22,633 nucleotides of DNA from Candidatus Baldrarchaeum yapensis (lineage in GTDB: Archaea > Asgardarchaeota > Baldrarchaeia > Baldrarchaeales > Baldrarchaeaceae): contig JAEOSH010000036.1 in the NCBI GenBank assembly GCA_016840465.1, positions 1 through 22,633 on the forward strand, written 5' to 3'. The notes under the pieces are model-generated. The model ran no database searches and had not been told where the DNA came from. It saw nothing but the letters and a program-made list of their open reading frames with translations. Of this stretch, positions 2,528 through 16,833 are shown one piece after another (the stretch's first letter is position 1; the number at the start of each line of letters is the position of its first letter). The translations under genes and the position numbers were made by a program.

Positions 2528-3175
2528 GTGTCTTCTAGCGAGGAGTTCGTAAATGCAATCTTGGAACTCGAGGAAGAGAAAGCGCTTAAAATAACTAGGG
2601 AAAGACTTGAAGCAGGAGAGGATCCCCTAAAGATCCTAGATGATCTTAAGGTTGTAGCTGAAAAAGTTGGAGAAAAATACGAGAAGGGAGAGTTTTTTGT
2701 GGCAGATCTCGTTATGGCTGGAGAGATCATGAAGGAAGTGAGCGAACTAGTTAGACCGAAGCTCAAAGAGCTCGGTAAAGCTAGAGAACCTATCGGAAAA
2801 TTTGTCATCGGTACGGTCGAGGGCGATATACATGATATTGGTAAAAATATTGTTGTAACTATGGCCGAGGCGGCTGGGTTCGAAGTCATTGACCTCGGAG
2901 TAGACGTTCCGCCGCAGAAATTCGTTGAGGCAATAAAGCAGCACAACCCGGATGTAGTTGGTATGTCAGGGCTACTAACATTGGCAATAGAATCGATGAA
3001 AAAGACGATAGATGCCATAAAGAATGCTGGGCTCAGAGATAAGGTTAAGATCATTATTGGCGGTGGAAGAGTGGATGAATATGCAAAAGAATATACGGGT
3101 GCAGATGCGTGGACAAATGATGCAGCAACAGGAATAAGAATAATGTTAGGATGGGTGGGAGGAAAGAAGGTTTAG
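2528..3175 (+). CDS. Corrinoid (B12-binding) protein of a methyltransferase system (MtaC/MtoC/MtgC-like)
   Basis: 215 aa. Four-helix cap (GEFFVADLVMAGE), base-off/His-on motif GTVEGDIHDIGKN (DxHxxG), VGMSGLLT, IIGGG. GTG start with RBS GAGGTG. Confidence 0.93.
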   Translation: MSSSEEFVNAILELEEEKALKITRERLEAGEDPLKILDDLKVVAEKVGEKYEKGEFFVADLVMAGEIMKEVSELVRPKLKELGKAREPIGKFVIGTVEGDIHDIGKNIVVTMAEAAGFEVIDLGVDVPPQKFVEAIKQHNPDVVGMSGLLTLAIESMKKTIDAIKNAGLRDKVKIIIGGGRVDEYAKEYTGADAWTNDAATGIRIMLGWVGGKKV

Positions 3176-3186
3176 AGGTGAGCTTA

Positions 3187-4470
3187 ATGGGTGTTAATAA
3201 GGAACCAATAGATGTTTTAATTGAAAGACAGCAAAAAGAACCTGAAACAGTAGCTAAAGAGAGGCTGGACATTATTCTCAAGGCTGTTGAACTGAAGGTT
3301 CCAAGCAGAGTTCCCATAAGTGGATTAGGAGGAGACATAATGGCTTACTATAATGGCAAAACATGGTACGATGTGTGCTACGACTTCGAAAAAGCTCGTG
3401 AAGCCGTACTTAGTTTTGCTAAAAACTTTCCACAAGACTTCCCATTTATCTTAGCTCCATACGGCCTTGAAGGATTTATCTTTGCATTGGCGTTTTCAGA
3501 CTTTCCTGACTTTTCAAACATTATAAGGTTCTTGACAGGCCCTGTACATGATATAATTAAGGATAAGTGGTCTAGGTGGCCTGGAAGAGAACTTAGAGAG
3601 CATCAACATCCCCAGTTCCTTGGCGGAGAGTTCATGAAGCCAGAAGAGTATAAGCAGCTTATCGATGACCCTCTCAAGTTTATTCACGATGTTGTATTTC
3701 CAAGAGCTTGCCCAGGTCTCGGGAAGCCTAAGTCACCACAGTGGAATGGAACACTAATTAGGATAGGCTTAACACTACAGAGAGTTGCATCGTTCCAAGG
3801 AGCACTCTTCCAAGAACTCGGAAAACTCGGTTACCCTGCCATACCTATGACGTCGGCATATTCACCTGCTGACATCATAGGTGACTTCCTTAGACATCCA
3901 ACCGGCGCTATGCTTGATATGAGAAGACATCCGGACGACTTCAAAGCTGCATGCGAAGCACTAATTGAGCATATACTGAAAGTGGCTACAGCAATCCCTC
4001 CAACACCACCACTAACGATAAGCTTCATACCGTTGCATCTTAACGAGATGCTTTCACCTAAACTGTACAACGAATTCTACTGGCCATATCTAAAGAAAGT
4101 GATATTGGAACTCGTCAATAAGGGCTACAAGATGTTCATATTCTTTGAGGGTGACCACACGCCGCATGTAGATACAATACTTGAACTGCCTAAAGGTTGG
4201 GGCGTGGCGTGGTTTGAGAGGCCTAGAGATTTTATAAAAGATGTTTGGGAGAAGTTGAAGGGCCATACATGTGTTATGGGCGGAGTACCAACAAACCTAC
4301 TGGTCGGAGGAACGCCAGAAAAGATTGAAGAATACGTGAAGAACTTACTTAACCAGACCAAATCAGAAGGTGGGTTCATACTATCGACAGGTGTAGCCGA
4401 GTTACCCAAGGAGACACCTAAACAGAATATAAGAGCTTATATAAACGCAGCTCTAAAATATGGAGAATAG
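3187..4470 (+). CDS. URO-D-family corrinoid methyltransferase, MT1/O-demethylase-like (paralogue 1)
   Basis: Likely start is ATG 3187, after RBS GAGGTGA (the track ORF starts at 3151 inside the upstream gene). Motifs PSRVP, LSPKLYNEFYWPYLKK, FFEGD, GHTCVMGGVP, GGFILS. Has LHL rather than the HxC Zn/thiol motif of MtaA/MtbA. Confidence 0.8.
   Translation: MGVNKEPIDVLIERQQKEPETVAKERLDIILKAVELKVPSRVPISGLGGDIMAYYNGKTWYDVCYDFEKAREAVLSFAKNFPQDFPFILAPYGLEGFIFALAFSDFPDFSNIIRFLTGPVHDIIKDKWSRWPGRELREHQHPQFLGGEFMKPEEYKQLIDDPLKFIHDVVFPRACPGLGKPKSPQWNGTLIRIGLTLQRVASFQGALFQELGKLGYPAIPMTSAYSPADIIGDFLRHPTGAMLDMRRHPDDFKAACEALIEHILKVATAIPPTPPLTISFIPLHLNEMLSPKLYNEFYWPYLKKVILELVNKGYKMFIFFEGDHTPHVDTILELPKGWGVAWFERPRDFIKDVWEKLKGHTCVMGGVPTNLLVGGTPEKIEEYVKNLLNQTKSEGGFILSTGVAELPKETPKQNIRAYINAALKYGE
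4024..4097 (+). repeat. 74-bp exact repeat shared by the two URO-D-family paralogues (copy 1)
   Basis: TTCATACCGTTGCATCTTAACGAGATG...TGGCCATATCTAAAGAA is identical to 6514-6587. Confidence 0.95.
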
Positions 4471-4482
4471 GAGGTAAGTCTT

Positions 4483-5667
4483 ATGAGTGAGGTAGAAACA
4501 AAACCCCAGCCTCCAGTTAAGCCGAGTATACTACCAATAATTTTGCTCACTATTTCGTCATTCATTGGTGGTGCCGGCTTCGGTATCTATGCCCCCCTAA
4601 TTCCGTTACATGCTCTTGAGCTCGGAGCTCCACCAGCAATAGCTACAGCTACTGTTATGGCGCTTCCATCAATACTAGCTGTCATCGTTCTGCTTCCCGC
4701 AAGTATCTATGCCGACAAGTCCGGTAGGAGAAAGGAGCTTCTAATAGTAGCATTAGCTCTCGCCACAATCTGTAACTTGCTACTGGGTTTTGCTCGAGGC
4801 TGGGTGGAACTCGCAATTTACAGGACGATAAGTGGGTTGGTATTTGCTTTTCTGTCGTTGTATATGGCTATAGGCGTCCTCATAGCCCCTCCAGAGAAAC
4901 GTGGAACTGTGCTCGCTGTACTTGCAGGTTCTGGTATGCTCGGTATGGGCGTATCGCAATTATTTGCTGGTTCACTCTACAGCATACTCGGTGGATACCA
5001 ACCAATATACCTTCTAGCAGCTGGTTTATCACTTATCAGCTTACTATTACTGCTACCTGTTGAAGCACCTCCTGTTAAACTTCCAGCAATGAGTCTAACC
5101 GATGCTGGGAAAGTTCTGAGAACTCGTGGTGTATACTGGGTCGCTGTGAGCCTGTTCATCTATCTATGTGGATGGAACCTCATGTACCCATCGCTATCAA
5201 TAATATTGACTGAAATCTACGAGGCCCCCGTTTGGATAGCTTCGATAGCATTTGCTGTTGCATCCATCATGCTGGGTGCAGGAACTTACATATGGGGTCC
5301 CGTAATAGACAAAATCGGTGGCAGAAAATCACTGATATCCGCTATTCTCGCATCAGCTATATTTACATTCGTAATGATTCCCACTTTAGGCTTCATGTGG
5401 GCATTCATCATATTGTTCTGGATAGTTACGGTGTTTGGCGTTGTCGGTGCGCCAGGTTCTACCTATGTGGCAACAAAAAGTGTTAAACAAGAATATGCCT
5501 CGATAGCAACAGCTGTACAGTTCGTATTCCTAAGCTTAGCCAGCGTAATCGGAGGCTTTGCAGCAGGAGCGCTCTTAGCTTCACTAGGATTAAGCTATAC
5601 ATTGCTGATAGCTGCTGTTATAGAACTGGTTGGAGGAATAATGATGTTCGGAGTACCAGAGGTGTAA
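4483..5667 (+). CDS. MFS transporter
   Basis: 394 aa with about 12 hydrophobic segments. MFS motif A in both halves (ADKSGRRK; GPVIDKIGGRK). RBS GGAGGT upstream. Confidence 0.92.
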   Translation: MSEVETKPQPPVKPSILPIILLTISSFIGGAGFGIYAPLIPLHALELGAPPAIATATVMALPSILAVIVLLPASIYADKSGRRKELLIVALALATICNLLLGFARGWVELAIYRTISGLVFAFLSLYMAIGVLIAPPEKRGTVLAVLAGSGMLGMGVSQLFAGSLYSILGGYQPIYLLAAGLSLISLLLLLPVEAPPVKLPAMSLTDAGKVLRTRGVYWVAVSLFIYLCGWNLMYPSLSIILTEIYEAPVWIASIAFAVASIMLGAGTYIWGPVIDKIGGRKSLISAILASAIFTFVMIPTLGFMWAFIILFWIVTVFGVVGAPGSTYVATKSVKQEYASIATAVQFVFLSLASVIGGFAAGALLASLGLSYTLLIAAVIELVGGIMMFGVPEV

Positions 5668-5673
5668 CCTCTG

Positions 5674-6960
5674 ATGCAAAAGACGGTGGAAGAACTTTAT
5701 CGTGAAAGGCTTGAGAGATTCGAGAAAGCTGCAAAAAACCAGAAACCGGATAGAGTGCCCTTCATGCCGGCATTTACATATTTTCCAGCTCGATATGCTG
5801 GTATAACATATCACGAATATTCTTTCAACTATAATAAGTTCGTTGAAGCTGTTCTAAAGGTATATAAGGACTTCGACTTTGATTTGGCGGGATTCGTGGC
5901 ACCTGGAACAGGTATACCAGGACCTTTAGGTTTCCCAATAATATTTGTTAGGGAGTTTCCAGAACTTCTCACCACCATACCAGTTTTTGCAGGACCTGCG
6001 CACGATATTCTGGGCGATAAGTATACTAAGTGGCCTGGTAGGGAGCTGGATGTAAATAAACCCTCTCAGATAGCCTATGTAGATGCACCGTACATGACTG
6101 TTGAGGAATACAGGGAGCTCGCAGAAAACCCAGTAAAATTTCTAATAGAGAAAATCGTACCAAGAGTCTACAGAAACCTCTCAAAGCCGGGAACACCACA
6201 ATATATAGCTACGTTGGTAAAACTTGGCATGGAATCGTTGAAATTCGGTGCGGTAATGCAACAACTGGTCATGGAACTCAGGAAAATAGGTTATCCTATG
6301 CTTCCATTCTCTTTTTCAACAACTCCACTAGATTATATAGGTGATAATTTAAGATGTCCACATAACTACATACTCGTAGACATACACAGAGTGCCAGAAG
6401 ACGTGAAAAGTGCAACTGAAGCACTTCTGCCATACCTAATAGAACTAGGTTTAAAAGCTGTACCTCCACCGGAGATTAGAAAGAAACTCTACGGCACAGA
6501 ACTCTGTACAATATTCATACCGTTGCATCTTAACGAGATGCTTTCACCTAAACTGTACAACGAATTCTACTGGCCATATCTAAAGAAGCAAATAGTAGAA
6601 TTCCATAAAGCTGGTCTTATATCGTGGGTATTCTTTGAGGGCGACCATACACCACACCTGGAGACATTGCTGGAGGTGCCGAAAGGTAGTGTAATAGCGT
6701 ATTTCGAGAAAACCGATCTTAGGAAAGCCAGAGAGGTGTTAGGGGACCATGTCGTTATCATGGGTGGATTACCACCAGCACTTCTTGTGCTCGGAACACC
6801 AGAAAAAGTCTATGAAGAAGCGTGTAAGTTACTTAACGATGTTAAGGAGCCAGGAGGCTTCATAATGGCGGGTAGCGGTGTGACTGGTATACCAGATGAA
6901 ACAAAACCAGAAAACCTGAGGGCTCTTATAGAAGCAGTGAAGAAATGTGGAACTTATTGA
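5674..6960 (+). CDS. URO-D-family corrinoid methyltransferase, MT1/O-demethylase-like (paralogue 2)
   Basis: 428 aa. KPDRVPF, LHLNEMLSPKLYNEFYWP, FFEGD, GDHVVIMGGLP, GGFIM. Collinear with paralogue 1 and lacks the HxC motif. Confidence 0.82.
   Translation: MQKTVEELYRERLERFEKAAKNQKPDRVPFMPAFTYFPARYAGITYHEYSFNYNKFVEAVLKVYKDFDFDLAGFVAPGTGIPGPLGFPIIFVREFPELLTTIPVFAGPAHDILGDKYTKWPGRELDVNKPSQIAYVDAPYMTVEEYRELAENPVKFLIEKIVPRVYRNLSKPGTPQYIATLVKLGMESLKFGAVMQQLVMELRKIGYPMLPFSFSTTPLDYIGDNLRCPHNYILVDIHRVPEDVKSATEALLPYLIELGLKAVPPPEIRKKLYGTELCTIFIPLHLNEMLSPKLYNEFYWPYLKKQIVEFHKAGLISWVFFEGDHTPHLETLLEVPKGSVIAYFEKTDLRKAREVLGDHVVIMGGLPPALLVLGTPEKVYEEACKLLNDVKEPGGFIMAGSGVTGIPDETKPENLRALIEAVKKCGTY
6514..6587 (+). 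repeat. 74-bp exact repeat shared by the two URO-D-family paralogues (copy 2)
   Basis: Identical to 4024-4097; the flanking sequence diverges on both sides. Confidence 0.95.
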
Positions 6961-7046
6961 AGTAAAATGGTGAAGCATTAAACTTAACAATACAAAACTG
7001 AAATAATGTCGGCAAGTTTTAAATATTTGTGAAAGGAAGTGATCAG

Positions 7047-7955
7047 ATGTTTAAGTTTGAAAAAGAACAAAAGATATTTGATATATGTGGCGTGAAGATT
7101 GGCGGCCAGCCAGGGGAGTTACCTACAGTTATGATTGGAAGCATTTTCTACCATAAACATAAAATTGTAGAAAACGAGAAGACAGGTGAATTTGACAAGA
7201 AAAAGGCGGAAGAACTTTTGAAAAAAGAAGAAGAACTAATGGATAAAACCGGGAATCCTAGGATCGTCGATGTTTGTGCTTCTTATCCTGAAGCCTTCCC
7301 AAAATTCATCGATTTCGTTGCAAGTATAATTGATGGACCATTCCTCATCGATGGTGCAACCGAAGACGCGAGAATTGCGGGAGCAAAATATGTCGAGGAA
7401 GTGGGTTTAGCTAACCGCGTCATATACAACTCCATTACGCCCCACATAAAGGAAAGGGAAATCACAGCACTAAAAGAGTCAAAAATCAAATCTGCAATAC
7501 TACTTACATTAAACACAAGAAACCCCACAATATCCGGAAGACTAGAAGCCCTAGAAGAACTTCTAAAAATAGTAGGCGAAATAGGAATCGAGAAACCCTT
7601 AGTGGATACAACCGTCCTAGACATCCCGGATCCGGGTCCAGTAAGCAAAGCAATATACAGAGTTAAGGAAAAATATGGACTACCAGCTGGAGCAGGAATA
7701 CACAACGCTATAGACAGATGGAGAGAAAGAGCGAAACTAGATCCATATAAATATGCTTTGGCCAGTAGCGTTGCATATGTAACATCAATCATAATGGGCG
7801 CCGACTTCGTCCTATACGGCCCGATAGAAAATGCTCCAGAGGCATACTTCGCCGTATCACTAGCTGACGCATACGTATCATACAGCATGAGACAAGAATA
7901 CCGCTTACGACCACTAACACAAAACCACCCAATATTCAAAATATTTAGAAGATAA
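7047..7955 (+). CDS. MtrH-like methylcorrinoid:tetrahydropterin methyltransferase (MtoA/MtgA-like), canonical
   Basis: Likely start ATG 7047 (MFKFEKEQ). Motifs KIGGQPGELPTVMIGSIFY, LIDG, YNSI, LVD, HN, GADFVLYGPI and C-terminal HPIFK, all MtrH-family hallmarks. Confidence 0.88.
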   Translation: MFKFEKEQKIFDICGVKIGGQPGELPTVMIGSIFYHKHKIVENEKTGEFDKKKAEELLKKEEELMDKTGNPRIVDVCASYPEAFPKFIDFVASIIDGPFLIDGATEDARIAGAKYVEEVGLANRVIYNSITPHIKEREITALKESKIKSAILLTLNTRNPTISGRLEALEELLKIVGEIGIEKPLVDTTVLDIPDPGPVSKAIYRVKEKYGLPAGAGIHNAIDRWRERAKLDPYKYALASSVAYVTSIIMGADFVLYGPIENAPEAYFAVSLADAYVSYSMRQEYRLRPLTQNHPIFKIFRR

Positions 7956-8099
7956 GCGAGGCCATTTTGTGATTTTACAAAAGGCAATTTTCTTTTATTT
8001 CGATAATATGGTGCTTCTGAACTTTTTTGAGGTTGAGCAACCACAATTAAGAATTAAGTGGACAAAAACATATTTCGTGCACAACCTCTATTTCCTTAA

Positions 8100-8404
8100 C
8101 TGGAAGGCCATAGAGTCGGGATGTACATGAAACGGCCACGCGGCGGACGTCACGAAATCATTAGAGACAGTAGCCTTCGTCAAGATCCAGGAGAGAGCCT
8201 CCTTATCGAGTTTGTAGGCCGCGTATGGAGTGGAGGAACACCTCCGCGACCCTCGATATGCTTAAATACTGCACCCGCTGTACCGTATTTTCGTCTTCCC
8301 ATCAATGATAATTCGTCTTTTTGATGTTGTGTCGGCATCTCATACTGTTAGGTGCCGCAAGCGGCCGCGTAAACCCTTCGCATTCTTCGAGAAAAAGTTT
8401 CGAA
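8100..8404 (+). mobile_element. Degraded IS relic, copy 2 (possible 3' end of an IS4-superfamily/ISH3-like transposase plus terminus)
   Basis: 8224-8401 is homologous to the reverse complement of 1750-1936. Frame-broken peptides WKAIESG..MKRP..RTSRNH weakly resemble the W-x-IE..R-T-S-R-N C-terminal region of ISH3-type transposases. The family call is tentative. Confidence 0.5.
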
Positions 8405-8491
8405 CGAGAAAGAATTTATTGTTTTCACTTCATGGTTTCTCTTTGAAGCTTTAGGATCTTACAGCGGAAGTAGCAATAGAGGTGTGAAATA

Positions 8492-10408
8492 GTGCCTGAA
8501 GCAAAAGGATTGGAAGTAGGGAAAATAGTGGTGGTTTTTGAACCAGAGGGAAAAAAGATAGTAGTAAAGTCTGGAGCCACCATACTGGAAGCAGCGAAAA
8601 ATGCAGGTGTAGGTATTAGATCTGAATGTGGAGGAGAAGGAATTTGTGGAAAATGTAAGGTGATTGTCAAAAATCCTTTGGCCATAAGCGAGTTGACCGA
8701 GGCTGAAAAACGACATTTATCTAAGTTGGAGATAGATTCAGGCTACAGATTAGCTTGCCAAGCACATATCAAACAAAGTGTTGTGATAGTAGTTCCTCCT
8801 GAAAGTAGAATTGGGGAACGTAAAATTCAAGTTGCTGGTTTAGAAAGATACGTGCCCTTAAACCCTTTAGTCAAGAAAATTCACGTAGTTATGGCAAAAC
8901 CCACATTATCCGATGTTAGACCAGACTTCGAAAGACTTATCGACCATCTGAGGGACAGAAACGGCTTTGAAGATTTAGAAATAGACTATGAACTCTTAAA
9001 GAAACTGCCTGATATAATTCGTAGCAAAAATTGGGCCGTAACGGTAACAATCTGGGATGACAGAAAGCTAATTGATATTGAACCGGGAGATACCTCAAAT
9101 GAACTTTTTGGGTTTGCCGTAGATATAGGCACTTCCAAGATAGTTGGCTATCTAGTTGATCTGACAACAGGTAAAACTATAAGCATAGGGTCTATTGAAA
9201 ACCCCCAAATCATGCATGGTGAAGACATTATAACAAGGATAGGGTTCGCAACAGGTAGCGATTCAAACCTCGAAGTACTGCAGAAACTTGTTATCAACGG
9301 TATAAATCAAGTCATACATGAAGCTTGCAGAAAAGCGAAAGTCAACCCAAACAAAATATACGAGGCAACAGTTGTTGGGAACACAGCAATGCTTCACTTT
9401 TTCTTAGCAATCCAGCCAAGATATCTTGCTCTTTCACCTTTTGTACCAGCCATAAAAAAATCTCTGAATATTAAAGCCAAGAACTTAGGGCTCAAAATAA
9501 ATCCTAGAGGAAATGTTCACGTTCTACCGGTTATAGCCGGATTTGTTGGGGCAGATGCGGTTGCAGATGTTTTATCAACAGGAATTCTCGAATCCAACGA
9601 GGTTTCTTTGCTGATAGATATTGGAACGAACACTGAAGTGTTTGTAGGAAACTCCGAAGATATGATAACTTGTTCCTGTGCTTCTGGACCAGCTTTCGAA
9701 GGAGCGCATATCAAACATGGGATGAAAGCTGTAACAGGTGCAATAGAAAAGGTTCGCATAATTTCAGAGGATGAGGTTGAATATGAAGTGATAGGGGGCG
9801 TAAAACCTACTGGCATATGTGGATCAGCTATGATTGATATCATAGCTGAAATGTTTAAACAGGGAATAATAGATAGTCGTGGAAGATTTAACCTAAAAAT
9901 AAAAACACCTAGATTAAGGAAAAACAACAAGTGGACAGAGTTTGTTGTTGCTTGGGGTGATGAGACCGCAACAGGTAAAGAAATCACGGTAACGCAAAGA
10001 GATATCAATGAAATTTTACTTGCAAAGGCCGCCATATACACGGGATGCTCAATTCTAATGAAAAGGAGAAACGTTAAAGAGGAAGATATTGATAGAGTTT
10101 ATATTGCTGGGGCCTTTGGAAGCTACATTAACCCTGAAAACGCGAAAATCATAGGTTTAATCCCCGATATACCAACGAGAAAGATAGAGTTTGTTGGCAA
10201 CACCGCGATAACAGGTGCAAAAATGGCCTTAATATCTAAAGAGATGAGGGAAAAAGCAAATCTAATATCAAAGAAAGTTCGTTACTTGGAACTTACGATG
10301 GATCCCGACTTCAGCAAAGAATTTGTAAACGCCCTATTCATACCAAACAGAAACATAAATAGATTTCCAACAGTAAAAAAATTATTAAAGAGACTTAGGA
10401 AAAATTAA
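8492..10408 (+). CDS. Reductive activator of corrinoid proteins (RACE/RamA/MtoD family; 2Fe-2S plus ASKHA ATPase)
   Basis: 638 aa. CGGEGICGKC...RLAC 2Fe-2S motif, ASKHA motifs DIGTS and DIGTN, SGPAFEG, GICGS, LAKAAI, AGAFGS. GTG start after RBS GAGGTG. Confidence 0.92.
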   Translation: MPEAKGLEVGKIVVVFEPEGKKIVVKSGATILEAAKNAGVGIRSECGGEGICGKCKVIVKNPLAISELTEAEKRHLSKLEIDSGYRLACQAHIKQSVVIVVPPESRIGERKIQVAGLERYVPLNPLVKKIHVVMAKPTLSDVRPDFERLIDHLRDRNGFEDLEIDYELLKKLPDIIRSKNWAVTVTIWDDRKLIDIEPGDTSNELFGFAVDIGTSKIVGYLVDLTTGKTISIGSIENPQIMHGEDIITRIGFATGSDSNLEVLQKLVINGINQVIHEACRKAKVNPNKIYEATVVGNTAMLHFFLAIQPRYLALSPFVPAIKKSLNIKAKNLGLKINPRGNVHVLPVIAGFVGADAVADVLSTGILESNEVSLLIDIGTNTEVFVGNSEDMITCSCASGPAFEGAHIKHGMKAVTGAIEKVRIISEDEVEYEVIGGVKPTGICGSAMIDIIAEMFKQGIIDSRGRFNLKIKTPRLRKNNKWTEFVVAWGDETATGKEITVTQRDINEILLAKAAIYTGCSILMKRRNVKEEDIDRVYIAGAFGSYINPENAKIIGLIPDIPTRKIEFVGNTAITGAKMALISKEMREKANLISKKVRYLELTMDPDFSKEFVNALFIPNRNINRFPTVKKLLKRLRKN

Positions 10409-10484
10409 GTTCATAAAATATTTAGCACGCATACACTGCCACATCGAAGGCTAAATTTTAATTACTTACTTAAATTGTGAATAA

Positions 10485-10512
10485 ATAACGCGCTAAAATA
10501 TTTTTGCGTTAT
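10485..10512. promoter_or_regulatory. Imperfect palindrome upstream of the second MtrH-like gene
   Basis: ATAACGC-GCT-AAAATATTTT-T-GCGTTAT in the AT-rich spacer 10409-10573. Confidence 0.3.
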
Positions 10513-10573
10513 ACGTTATAATTCTCCTCAATTTTAAAAGTTAAAAATTAAAATGTTTTTTGGAGATGATCTT

Positions 10574-11509
10574 ATGTTTGAAATTGATAAGCTCAAGCCT
10601 AATCAGAAGATTTTTGAGATTGGAAAGGTAAGGATTGGAGGTAATCCTGGGGAACTTCCAACAGTTTTAATTGGAAGCATTTTTTATAAGGGGCATAAAA
10701 TTGTTAAGGATCAAGTTAAGGGCGTTTTTGATAAGGGGCAGGCTGAGAAGTTAATTGTGAAGCAGGATGAATTATCAGAGGAGACGGGGAATCCATGTAT
10801 GGTTGATGTAGAAGCATTTTCAAAAAAAGCTATTGAAAAATACATCGACTTCGTATCTGAGGTAACAGATGCACCTATTTTGGTAAACAGTATATATGTG
10901 CCAGTTAGGTTGCACGGAGTCAAATATGCTAAGGAAGTAGGTCTCATAAATAGGATAGTCTATGTTTCTATTAACTATAAGGTGGATGATAAGGAAATAG
11001 AATTTTTAAGGAATATTGGATTGAAATCCGCTGTAATTCAAGCTTTTAATCCAAGAAACCCTTGGCCAGAAGGCATGTTGCAAATTCTCTTAGGAAAAAA
11101 CGGTCTACTAAACATTTCTTCTAAAATTGGTGTGGAAAAACCTTTAATTTTAACTAATGTTTTAGACGTTCCTAGCATAGGTTTAGCGGCAAATGGAATA
11201 AAAGTAATTAAGGAGGAAACCGGCTTTCCAACTGGTACAGCCCCTGTCGGCGTAGTTGGATCTTGGTATAGAAATGTTGCGATTAAAATTTTTGGAAGTG
11301 ATGCTAAAGGTTGTTGCGAAGCGGTAGCTATGGCGATGTGTCAATTTGCTGGTGCAAATTTTATACATTACGGTTCTCTAAGAAAAGCCAGTAGGATCTT
11401 TCCTGCAACAGCTATGATAGATGCTATAATAGCATATAAGGCTAGACTTCACGGAATAAAACCGAAAACCAAGAATCATCCATTATACAAAATCTCTTTC
11501 CACATTTGA
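10574..11509 (+). CDS. Divergent MtrH-like protein lacking the canonical pterin-binding residues
   Basis: Likely start ATG 10574 (RBS GGAGATGA). RIGGNPGELPTVLIGSIFY and C-terminal NHPLYK fix the family. It has LVNS, YVSI, LILT and PVGV where the paralogue has LIDG, YNSI, LVDT and IHNA. Confidence 0.85.
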   Translation: MFEIDKLKPNQKIFEIGKVRIGGNPGELPTVLIGSIFYKGHKIVKDQVKGVFDKGQAEKLIVKQDELSEETGNPCMVDVEAFSKKAIEKYIDFVSEVTDAPILVNSIYVPVRLHGVKYAKEVGLINRIVYVSINYKVDDKEIEFLRNIGLKSAVIQAFNPRNPWPEGMLQILLGKNGLLNISSKIGVEKPLILTNVLDVPSIGLAANGIKVIKEETGFPTGTAPVGVVGSWYRNVAIKIFGSDAKGCCEAVAMAMCQFAGANFIHYGSLRKASRIFPATAMIDAIIAYKARLHGIKPKTKNHPLYKISFHI

Positions 11510-11542: not shown

Positions 11543-12541
11543 GAGGGTTGTTTCATAATTTTACAAATGTAAAGGGGAGGGTCTATAGGGGCGGGCCGCC
11601 CCCATAGACTCATGCGACGACACGACCAGCTCATGGATATACCGTACAACCGCAACGCAATTATGGCTATTCTCGTCGCGACAAGGAGGCTGATATCAGA
11701 GGCACGGACGAGACGGAGACGCAGGGGACGCCCGCCGAAGTACGAGACGTGGAAGCTCGCAACACTCTGCGCAATAAAGGTACTCCTCAACATAACCTTC
11801 AAAAGAACCGCGGAGCTCGCACCACTCATCGTGGGCGCATCCCCAGCCCTGCAACCATCCACAGGGCCCGGGTGAAGCTAAAGGAATGGGCAATGGAGGT
11901 CGCAGCAAAGGCCACGGGAAACCCCGACCTCCCGGTCGCAGACTCAACCGGAGTCCCGCACCGCCAAAAGGGCCTCCACTTCAAGGTTCACTTCCTATAC
12001 GACATACTATCCGACCCCGTAATAGCCGCAACCCCCCGGCTCCACCGCAGACTACCAAGGCTACCGGAAACTCCTGCACTCGGTCCCTGAAAAATCCGCC
12101 ATGCTCGCAGGCTCGGCGTACTTCGGAAGGAGCAACTCCGAAAAAACCTGGAAAGGATGCGCCCCTCCTCACAAAACCCAGAAGGCCGCCCCGCTGGGGA
12201 AGGAGGCAGGACTGGGGCGCAAAATACGAAAGGATATTCGAGGCCCTCAAGTACCTCTACCGCCACAGAGGCGAGGGAGAGCGCTTCTGCTCGAGGCTAA
12301 AGGCGAGGTTGAAGAGGGCGCTGAAGTATCATCTCGTTGATAGCGCGGACGCCTTCGTGAAGTGGCTATCACTCGCGATGAATATAGAGCGGATCGTCAT
12401 CGGGAAGACAGGCGCGTGACTCGGAATCCGATAAAGCCTGAGGGGCAGAGACGGCTGGCGACGCGCGCATCAGCGACCGACACCCCCGGGCCGATGCCTA
12501 GCCGTGAGTATTTATGTTGAATTTATTTATGAAACAGCCTC
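11543..12541 (+). mobile_element. IS5-like (DDE_Tnp_1) insertion sequence, about 1 kb, with imperfect terminal inverted repeats
   Basis: Left end GAGGGTTGTTTCATAA (11543-11558); right end TTATGAAACAGCCTC (12527-12541; reverse complement GAGGCTGTTTCATAA). AT dinucleotide on both flanks. Visibly GC-richer than its surroundings. Confidence 0.8.
11612..12419 (+). pseudogene. Frameshifted DDE transposase
   Basis: Four overlapping ORF pieces stitch into GRPPKYE...SPATIHRAR...VADSTG...KVHFLYD...MLAGSAY (usually DxAY)...YRHRGEGERFCSRLK. At least three frameshifts, and the second catalytic Asp appears lost. Confidence 0.8.
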
Positions 12542-12593: not shown

Positions 12594-12671
12594 GGGCCCG
12601 TGGCCTAGTCTGGATAGGGCACCGGCCTGCGGAGCCGGGGGTCGCGGGTTCAAATCCCGCCGGGCCCGCCA
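12594..12671 (+). tRNA. tRNA-Arg(GCG), intronless, CCA encoded
   Basis: Full cloverleaf; anticodon GCG at 12629-12631; CCA at 12669-12671. Confidence 0.96.
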
Positions 12672-16140: not shown

Positions 16141-16251
16141 TGGTGGGGCCGCCGGGATTTGAACCCGGGATCACCAGCGCCCCTCGCCGGGCACTCTAAT
16201 AGGATTTCTGCCCCCAGGCTGGCATCCTAGGCCAAGCTAGACTACGGCCCC
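16141..16251 (-). tRNA. tRNA-Pro(GGG) with a 32-nt intron (best BHB fit 34/35, 16183-16214); CCA encoded
   Basis: Minus strand GGGGCCG...CCAGC-CT-GGGG-[32 nt]-C-GCTGG-TGATC-CCGGG-TTCAAAT-CCCGG-CGGCCCC-A-CCA. Confidence 0.93.
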
Positions 16252-16755: not shown

Positions 16756-16833
16756 TGGCGGGCCCGGCGGGATTTGAACCCGCGACCCCCGGCTCCGAAG
16801 GCCGGTGCCCTATCCAGACTAGGCCACGGGCCC
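16756..16833 (-). tRNA. tRNA-Arg(TCG), intronless, CCA encoded
   Basis: Full cloverleaf; identical to tRNA-Arg(GCG) at 12594 except at position 34. Confidence 0.96.

Follow-up and report, generated by a model that had tools for sequence, protein, structure and literature searches.

Can a non-methanogenic Asgard archaeon draw methyl groups from methylated organic compounds? This question is raised by a stretch of 22,633 nucleotides (nt) from Candidatus Baldrarchaeum yapensis (assembly GCA_016840465.1, contig JAEOSH010000036.1, positions 1 to 22,633; hereafter the window), in which a first-pass annotation had described a corrinoid-dependent demethylation module at positions 2528–11509. The open reading frame (ORF) listing and profile searches confirmed seven plus strand genes of the types that it named, and our analysis indicates that they probably form an Mto-type corrinoid-dependent methyl-transfer (O-demethylase) operon. 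The host is a non-methanogenic Asgard archaeon of the class Baldrarchaeia; the suggestion that its lineage might be a novel one no longer holds, as the genome is a described Baldrarchaeia metagenome-assembled genome (MAG).

The operon opens with a gene for a 215-aa MtoC-like corrinoid (B12) carrier protein (2528–3175, +; Pfam B12-binding_2 and B12-binding). Next come MT1a (3187–4470, +; 427 aa; Pfam URO-D), a URO-D-fold substrate:corrinoid methyltransferase (MT1) of the MtoB family, a 394-aa transporter of the major facilitator superfamily (MFS; 4483–5667, +; Pfam MFS_1), and MT1b (5674–6960, +; 428 aa), a second URO-D-fold MT1 of the same family. They are followed by MtrH-like 1 (7047–7955, +; 302 aa; Pfam MtrH), an MtoA-like methyl-corrinoid:pterin methyltransferase (MT2), by a 638-aa MtoD-like activase of the reductive activase of corrinoid protein (RACo) type (8492–10408, +), and by MtrH-like 2 (10574–11509, +; 311 aa; Pfam MtrH), a divergent second MT2 paralogue. 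Three of the genes have alternative starts: 3178 and 3151 for MT1a, for which ATG 3187 is the likely start, giving the 427-aa form annotated in other assemblies; GTG 7029 for MtrH-like 1 (308 aa); and ATG 10553 for MtrH-like 2 (318 aa). The first four genes had been described as lying no more than 12 nt apart, and the measured gaps are 11 nt between the corrinoid gene and MT1a (from ATG 3187), 12 nt between MT1a and the MFS gene, and 6 nt between the MFS gene and MT1b. Because the seven-gene block recurs in six further assemblies (JGI, ENA and NCBI), with proteins 99–100% identical, the operon is not an assembly artefact. At least half of its DNA was also present in each of six sequencing runs, which stem from separate metagenome studies of hydrothermal vents, sediment and seawater. 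The cluster has no evident regulator gene, and a scan for sigma-70 promoters and terminators, models that are not suited to archaea, gave matches at or below the shuffle expectation.

The relation to known O-demethylases is clearest in the two MT1s. MT1b is 46% identical to Methermicoccus shengliensis MtoB (P0055; full length, 381 bits) and to the Archaeoglobus fulgidus homologue (P0053), and MT1a aligns with M. shengliensis MtoB at 41% identity across 406 residues (E 1e-100), which is also the identity between MT1a and MT1b. M. shengliensis MtoB, named methoxylated aromatic compound--corrinoid protein Co-methyltransferase, is a biochemically characterised O-demethylase MT1 (PMC8630106). Neither window protein scores as a true uroporphyrinogen decarboxylase or a thiol MT2: the two MT1s gave 20 and 34 bits on the HemE model (TIGR01464; cut-off 303) and 28 and 49 bits on the MtaA/CmuA model (TIGR01463; cut-off 235), far below both curated thresholds. 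MT1b matched Pfam URO-D with 105 bits, and its AlphaFold model (mean predicted local distance difference test score, pLDDT, 91) showed the URO-D TIM-barrel fold plus extra elements. A Foldseek search of the PDB (entries up to April 2026) with this model returned URO-D decarboxylases and Methanosarcina mazei MtaA only; PDB entry 9rui, a haloalkane MT1 discussed below, was not among the matches. With template modelling (TM) scores of 0.57–0.69 at 13–18% identity, the resemblance to uroporphyrinogen decarboxylase structures is one of fold only. The first-pass annotation had also stated that neither URO-D protein carries the HxC motif of coenzyme M methyltransferases. This stands for the family-invariant histidine (PLHLNE), where the +2 residue is asparagine (H-L-N) in both proteins, with the qualification that MT1a carries an H-T-C tripeptide at residues 372–374, where MT1b has H-V-V.

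A 74-nt tract is identical at 74 of 74 positions between the MT1a gene (4024–4097, +) and the MT1b gene (6514–6587, +), the aligned codons of which are 56% identical overall, and it encodes the invariant FIPLHLNEML...YWPYLK motif. In Ignisphaera (locus L005), the paralogue pair shares a separate 70-nt tract of full identity at this site. Since the Ignisphaera tract differs synonymously from that of the window, the sequences suggest that gene conversion keeps the motif region identical independently in each genome. The closest relative of MT1b (75%) lies on a 395-kb contig (L103) in a rearranged cluster with the order RACo, MtrH, MFS, URO-D, corrinoid protein and two further URO-D genes; toxin-antitoxin genes of the PIN/MazE and HEPN/NT kinds surround this cluster. 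In L105, a relative of MT1a with 72% identity adjoins genes for an aldehyde:ferredoxin oxidoreductase (AFOR) and a molybdenum hydroxylase.

In the MT1 tree both proteins fall inside an MtoB-like group of 125 rows, which long branches divide from two distant bacterial URO-D paralogues. MT1a belongs to a nine-row clade with full support (100) in the Shimodaira–Hasegawa-like approximate likelihood ratio test (SH-aLRT), together with Ignisphaera, Nezhaarchaeales and Thermoprotei B15_G16, and MT1b to a three-row clade (99) nested in a 12-row clade (96) that includes Ignisphaera L005 (68% identity). Apart from the window proteins, the two clades consist of sequences from Ignisphaera, Desulfurococcaceae, Nezhaarchaeales, Bathyarchaeia and a Guaymas 'Thermoprotei' MAG. 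Characterised MtoB occupies a 20-row clade (SH-aLRT 100) with M. shengliensis, Archaeoglobaceae including A. fulgidus, Methanomicrobiales and the Asgard order Jordarchaeales. The tree thus places MT1a and MT1b within the MtoB-like group, as the first-pass annotation would have it, but as paralogues, not orthologues, of the characterised enzyme. A Thermovorax paralogue (L053:8591–9961) considered as a proxy for CdmB in the tree was dropped, as it scored only 90 bits to 9rui.

MtrH-like 1 matched Pfam MtrH with 320 bits and an NCBIfam subfamily model of the MtrH family with 334 bits (cut-off 287), and it also exceeded the cut-off of the mtrH equivalog model (294 versus 271 bits). Among solved relatives, it scored 273 bits to 8z9u_B, 221 to the Desulfitobacterium hafniense methylcorrinoid:tetrahydrofolate (H4F) methyltransferase 6sj8 and 202 to MtrH of the Mtr complex (9qtp). 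Both MT2s are nearer to the soluble methylcorrinoid:pterin methyltransferases (8z9u_B, 6sj8) than to 9qtp; no MtrA was found in the genome and no mtrA–G in the window. Our literature search found no paper on PDB entry 8Z9U, and nothing on a Bathyarchaeia O-demethylase with MtrH. MtrH-like 1 is 43–53% identical to the genes in MtoA position of Archaeoglobaceae and Jordarchaeales. MtrH-like 2 is more isolated: it scored 277 bits on Pfam MtrH, is 40% identical to MtrH-like 1, and its nearest match among 1.84 billion representatives is only 49% identical. Its third-codon-position GC content (GC3) of 0.29 is the lowest in the window. A 47% relative (P0252) is located in a cluster of MtrH, URO-D, corrinoid protein and RACo genes, and MtrH-like 2 therefore also belongs with the corrinoid demethylation type of system. 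In the MtrH family tree, each of the two proteins lies in its own small starred clade. No studied member exists in the MT1 or MT2 branches to which the window proteins belong.

The remaining components show the expected domains and motifs. The corrinoid protein matched the B12-binding_2 cap (54 bits), B12-binding (98 bits) and the NCBIfam model for methyltransferase cognate corrinoid proteins (167 bits), and carries the DxHxxG motif (DIHDIG) at residue 100. It is 76–80% identical to the corrinoid proteins of three Thermoproteota loci (L007, L049 and L080) and 58–63% identical to those in MtoC position in Archaeoglobaceae. The activase combines Fer2, RACo_linker, Raco_middle and RACo_C_ter (337 bits) domains, its Cys46, Cys52, Cys55 and Cys89 fit a [2Fe-2S] site, and it is 44–53% identical to the activases of Mto-type loci. 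The transporter matched Pfam MFS_1 with 124 bits; its best NCBIfam match, to the aromatic acid/H+ symporter family, is weak (31 bits, far under the cut-off). It is 60–62% identical to the MFS proteins adjoining MT1a-clade genes (L049, L007 and L005), and is presumed to import the substrate, export the product, or both.

How closely does this module resemble systems already described? The first-pass annotation had matched the component set to MtoABCD and called it Mtg-like, and the two comparisons came out differently. With MtoABCD of A. fulgidus (AF_0006–0013; Welte et al. 2021, PMC8359953) and M. shengliensis (Kurth et al. 2021, PMC8630106) the window has five component types in common: the corrinoid protein, the URO-D-fold MT1, the MtrH-like MT2, the RACo activase and an MFS within the cluster. 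The A. fulgidus cluster induced on 2-methoxyphenol runs MtoC (AF_0006), MtoB (0007), MFS (0008), MtoA (0009) and MtoD (0010) (PMC8359953), and the window order, C-B-MFS-(B)-A-D, is that of AF_0006–0010 with a second MT1 added after the MFS gene and a second MtrH-like gene after the activase. The M. shengliensis operon likewise has two adjacent MT1s, MtoB1 and MtoB2 (PMC8630106). The host resembles the Mto hosts in having a tetrahydromethanopterin (H4MPT) pathway, and A. fulgidus in lacking methanogenesis. Unlike the Mto systems, the window has MT1s of two other clades, a non-orthologous MFS and an Asgard host. The Mtg label fails for the MT1s. MtgABC of Ca. Baizosediminiarchaeum ligniniphilus (Bathyarchaeia; Yu et al. 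2023, PMC10989822) also comprises two MT1s, a corrinoid protein and an MT2 that delivers to H4MPT, with methoxy-aromatic substrates; however, MtgB is described as a protein of about 300 aa that is not homologous to known MT1s and is found in Bathyarchaeia only, and no activase was identified in that system (PMC10989822), whereas the window MT1s are 'bacterial-type' URO-D proteins of 427 and 428 aa. The module is thus analogous to Mtg and not a member of it.

Among the bacterial systems, which we compared by description, MtvABC of Moorella and OdmABCD and VdmABCD of Acetobacterium also combine a URO-D MT1, a corrinoid protein and a RACo-type activase and act on aryl methyl ethers, but their MT2 is of the H4F-dependent MtvA/OdmD type and not MtrH-like. 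CdmBCA of Acetobacterium dehalogenans (PDB 9rui; Bernhardt et al. 2026, PMC13222342) has in CdmB a zinc-free, full-length homologue of the window MT1s, together with a corrinoid protein and an activase; it differs in its haloalkane substrates, its MtqA-like H4F-dependent MT2 and the lack of a transporter in the cluster. The nearest clusters overall are uncharacterised ones of hyperthermophilic Thermoproteota MAGs, which belong to another phylum. Among 76 loci from species-representative genomes used for the synteny comparison, the closest arrangement was C-MT1a-MFS-MT1-MT1b-RACo in Thermoprotei archaeon B15_G16 (L007), with identities of 79, 70, 60, 53, 55 and 51%. Across this locus and those of Ignisphaera (L005 and L049), identities were 76–79% for the corrinoid protein, 67–70% for MT1a, 60–62% for the MFS and 55–68% for MT1b. 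These clusters have the same C-MT1a-MFS core as the window, but carry three MT1s or an upstream MtrH and no second MtrH-like gene; indeed, none of the other loci among the 76 has a gene of the MtrH-like 2 type.

What, then, could the host do with the methyl groups? Its genome (2,267,786 bases in 100 contigs, 45.95% GC) is 96% complete, and profile searches found neither McrA nor MtrA anywhere in it, extending the earlier statement, which was borne out, that the window has no mcr or mtrA–G genes. Fhs gave no match in the genome, and FolD only a sub-threshold one of 21 bits. Mer (500 bits), Mtd (416), Mch (406) and Ftr (208) are all present above their cut-offs; CdhC (228 bits) and the ATP-grasp subunit of an ADP-forming acetyl-CoA synthetase (ACD; 304 bits) are present too, and a MetF-like gene adjoins mer. 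With McrA, MtrA, Fhs and FolD lacking and Mer, Mtd, Mch, Ftr, CdhC and ACD in place, the entry of methyl-H4MPT into the Wood–Ljungdahl pathway is a coherent reading. The proposal that the module feeds the H4MPT methyl branch of this pathway in a non-methanogen is accordingly supported by homology, synteny and host genes alike. The published reconstruction for Baldrarchaeia mentions a complete Wood–Ljungdahl pathway and the oxidation of organic substrates. A division of labour between the two MT2s, one serving H4MPT and the other H4F, looks unlikely since Fhs had no match and FolD only the sub-threshold one.

The pathway that we propose would begin with the MFS protein bringing a methylated substrate in, taking the demethylated product out, or both. 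MT1a and MT1b would each demethylate a different substrate, most likely from the class of methoxylated aromatic compounds, and pass the methyl group to Co(I) of the shared corrinoid protein; an MtrH-like MT2 would then transfer it from CH3-Co(III) to H4MPT. Whenever cobalt is oxidised to Co(II) by accident, the activase would restore Co(I) at the expense of ATP and a low-potential electron. Methyl-H4MPT could join the archaeal Wood–Ljungdahl pathway, where CODH/ACS would form acetyl-CoA, to be converted to acetate and ATP via ACD; alternatively, it may be oxidised via Mer, Mtd, Mch and Ftr. What the data show is the gene set, its homology to published Mto clusters, the shared gene order and the pathway genes of the host; the substrates, H4MPT as acceptor, a single corrinoid protein for the four methyltransferases, the part played by the second MT2, and expression are inferred.

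The system has a patchy distribution. An MtoB-family gene was found in two of the five Baldrarchaeia species genomes and, at E 1e-60 or better, in 40 of 400 genomes of the phylum, concentrated in a few families; Mto homologues had already been published for Lokiarchaeota and Helarchaeota (PMC8359953). GC3 of the seven genes is 0.29–0.40, versus 0.44–0.61 in the flanking housekeeping genes, and among named relatives the nearest belong to Ignisphaera, Desulfurococcaceae, Nezhaarchaeales and Thermoprotei. Together with the MT1 tree and the presence in only some Baldrarchaeia, these observations indicate that the cluster has probably been exchanged laterally with hyperthermophilic Thermoproteota. 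Baldrarchaeia are themselves predicted hyperthermophiles (PMC10307638), and such a host fits gene sharing of this kind. The second Baldrarchaeia genome with the system holds a decayed cluster (G001:C56:3821–9662, L097) that is 92–96% identical: it retains the corrinoid protein, MT1a and MtrH-like 1 in full, while the MFS and MT1b are absent, RACo is broken into three fragments and MtrH-like 2 is truncated. Because this genome has about 9% contamination, the origin of the contig is uncertain.

Which substrates the MT1s use is less firmly indicated than the type of operon. Methoxylated aromatics are, by analogy, the class we favour, somewhat more cautiously than the operon assignment itself, because of the family membership, the synteny with two experimentally supported systems and the transporter within the operon, which fits a solute that needs transport, and because of the weak match of that transporter to aromatic acid symporters and the AFOR and molybdenum hydroxylase genes beside the 72% relative of MT1a. 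Several observations weigh on the other side. Both MT1s lie outside the clade of characterised MtoB, and both MtrH-like proteins outside the MtoA clade that unites Archaeoglobaceae, Jordarchaeales and Methanomicrobiales, the latter in a tree with a poorly resolved backbone. The MT1 tree, of 127 rows, came from a quick IQ-TREE search with SH-aLRT support only, and its rows are MtoB and uncharacterised relatives, CdmB, MtvB, OdmB and VdmB being left out. To its counterpart at this place in the Archaeoglobaceae clusters, the transporter shows only marginal similarity (E 0.02–0.4), and it is therefore a positional analogue and not an orthologue. There was no RNA run among the sequencing runs that contain operon DNA. 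Above all, CdmB is about 31% identical to MtoB and uses chloromethane and other haloalkanes, not methoxy-aromatics (PMC13222342), so that specificity is not readable from family membership at 41–46% identity. Of the earlier proposal that the host demethylates at least two classes of methylated substrates, with methoxy-aromatics as the best guess, the core is supported, while the substrates stay a best guess in view of CdmB.

The same enzyme raises the question whether one or both MT1s might be haloalkane dehalogenating methyltransferases of the CdmB kind, which would pass halomethane methyl groups into the Wood–Ljungdahl pathway. CdmB is the only solved close homologue and matches end to end (244 bits for MT1b, 219 for MT1a), it has no zinc site, the same as the window MT1s, and its homologues are reported from Asgardarchaeota, with specificity varying among close relatives (PMC13222342). 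Yet the window MT1s are no closer to it than true MtoB, which itself scores 219 bits, and MT1b is far closer to MtoB; the Asgard homologues in that paper are from Sigynarchaeales and not Baldrarchaeia (PMC13222342), the Cdm MT2 is an MtqA-type H4F enzyme whereas those of the window are MtrH-like, and a diffusible gas needs no MFS transporter between two MT1 genes. We consider such a function quite improbable. A further reading, doubtful but less improbable than haloalkanes, is that the same machinery as in Mto handles another class of solutes, different from lignin-type methoxy-aromatics: sugars or glycosides that are methylated, for example, or aliphatic methyl ethers, or methyl-thio compounds of hydrothermal organic matter. 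In its favour are the distinctness of the MT1a and MT1b clades from all characterised enzymes, their confinement to hot-spring and vent archaea, and the co-inheritance of an MFS from a different subfamily than that of Archaeoglobus. This reading sits less well with the fact that, haloalkane enzymes aside, all characterised members of the MtoB/MtvB/OdmB/VdmB group are aryl methyl ether demethylases (PMC13222342), and with the genes beside the 72% relative of MT1a, which fit aromatic aldehyde or acid metabolism, as well as with aromatic acid/H+ symporters being the best, if weak, match of the transporter. Finally, the cluster might be a recently acquired passenger that is unused or decaying in Baldrarchaeia. 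Its low GC3 relative to neighbouring genes, its occurrence in only two genomes of the class and the loss of genes and fragmentation of RACo in the second copy point this way, as do a second corrinoid/URO-D pair of the host genome, which is frameshifted, a fragmentary MtrH gene there that has an in-frame TGA, and two inverted copies of a dispersed repeat that bracket five cluster genes, from the corrinoid protein to MtrH-like 1. We regard it as very improbable all the same: the seven frames are all intact, with proteins nearly identical in the six further assemblies, which come from independent samples, the MT1 motif region appears to be kept identical by gene conversion, and the DxHxxG, Fe–S cysteine and PLHLNE motifs are all present. 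An Mto-type operon, with methoxylated aromatics as the favoured substrates, is the reading that we retain.

The repeat just mentioned is about 190 nt long. One copy lies left of the corrinoid gene (1748–1945, +) and an inverted copy between MtrH-like 1 and the activase gene (8215–8412, −); the two pair as inverted repeats (partner segment 8224–8401) and are 76–79% alike. At least five full-length copies, 75–84% alike, are present in the genome, the others being at C94:15444–15633, C86:16739–16927 and C67:103873–104061, each less than 700 nt from a contig end, and partial copies occur on several more contigs, among them C67, C90, C72 and C42. RNAalifold on five copies predicted 47 base pairs, 7 of them with compensatory changes. 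The element, missing from the cluster in G001, may be a miniature inverted-repeat transposable element, the end of an insertion sequence, or a structured RNA. The second corrinoid/URO-D pair of the host lies at about 11960–13780 of contig C75 (G000; L098 7960–9779); in it, a corrinoid gene 56% identical to that of the window precedes a distant URO-D-fold gene (28% identity to the MT1s). Frameshifts seem to affect both genes, next to which lie an ABC-2 exporter and an HdrD/GlcD-like pair. A third MtrH-family gene, the one with the in-frame TGA, is present as fragments at G000:C80:3094–3508.

Upstream of the operon, the gene at 206–1546 encodes a 'predicted GTPase' of 445 aa that matches cobW and CbiA weakly, resembles the 2,3-diphosphoglycerate synthetase family and is conserved upstream in the population. 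We rejected it as a cobalt chaperone of the module, as it is a CpgS-family-related 'predicted GTPase' and Mto clusters elsewhere lack it as a neighbour. On longer contigs from this population (L081 1–935), genes for Vps4 (MIT, AAA and Vps4_C domains) and an ESCRT-II protein lie about 6 kb upstream of the cluster, a combination that is an Asgard signature; the latter protein has only one other relative (55%) of near length in a collection of 5.8 billion proteins. A protein with 90% or more identity to MT1a carries the NCBI label Candidatus Baldrarchaeia. Directly after the low-GC MtrH-like 2 gene lies an ORF of 177 aa (11886–12419) with high GC (0.59), which matches no Pfam or NCBIfam model and is conserved in the population. 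Two tRNA genes are over-long, at 1597–1688 (+; 92 nt) and 16144–16251 (−; 108 nt), and are presumed to contain introns; ARAGORN left the former without identity and did not report the latter. Near-identical tRNA-Arg genes at 12594–12671 and 16756–16833 form a 99% inverted repeat.

In our literature search, we found no report of an Mto-type operon in Baldrarchaeia, and the words methyltransferase, methoxy and MtrH are missing from the main text of the preprint that named the group. Systems of this type are known, while the host class and the enzyme branches are unstudied; the finding leaves the understanding of how Mto-like systems work unchanged. It provides a concrete, testable catabolic input for a hyperthermophilic Asgard class known only from MAGs, and it offers an illustrative case of a whole metabolic module probably exchanged between Thermoproteota and Asgard archaea in vents. 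It is rather unlikely that the MT1 clades use a substrate class new for corrinoid methyltransferases and that, in addition, the two MT2s serve different acceptors or pathways; if this were true, the operon would point to an unrecognised methylotrophic, non-methanogenic way of life in a hyperthermophilic Asgard archaeon. As CdmB shows that specificity can switch in the MtoB family, the two uncharacterised MtoB-family clades and the second MT2 type, which are restricted to hot environments, make reasonable subjects for biochemical study.

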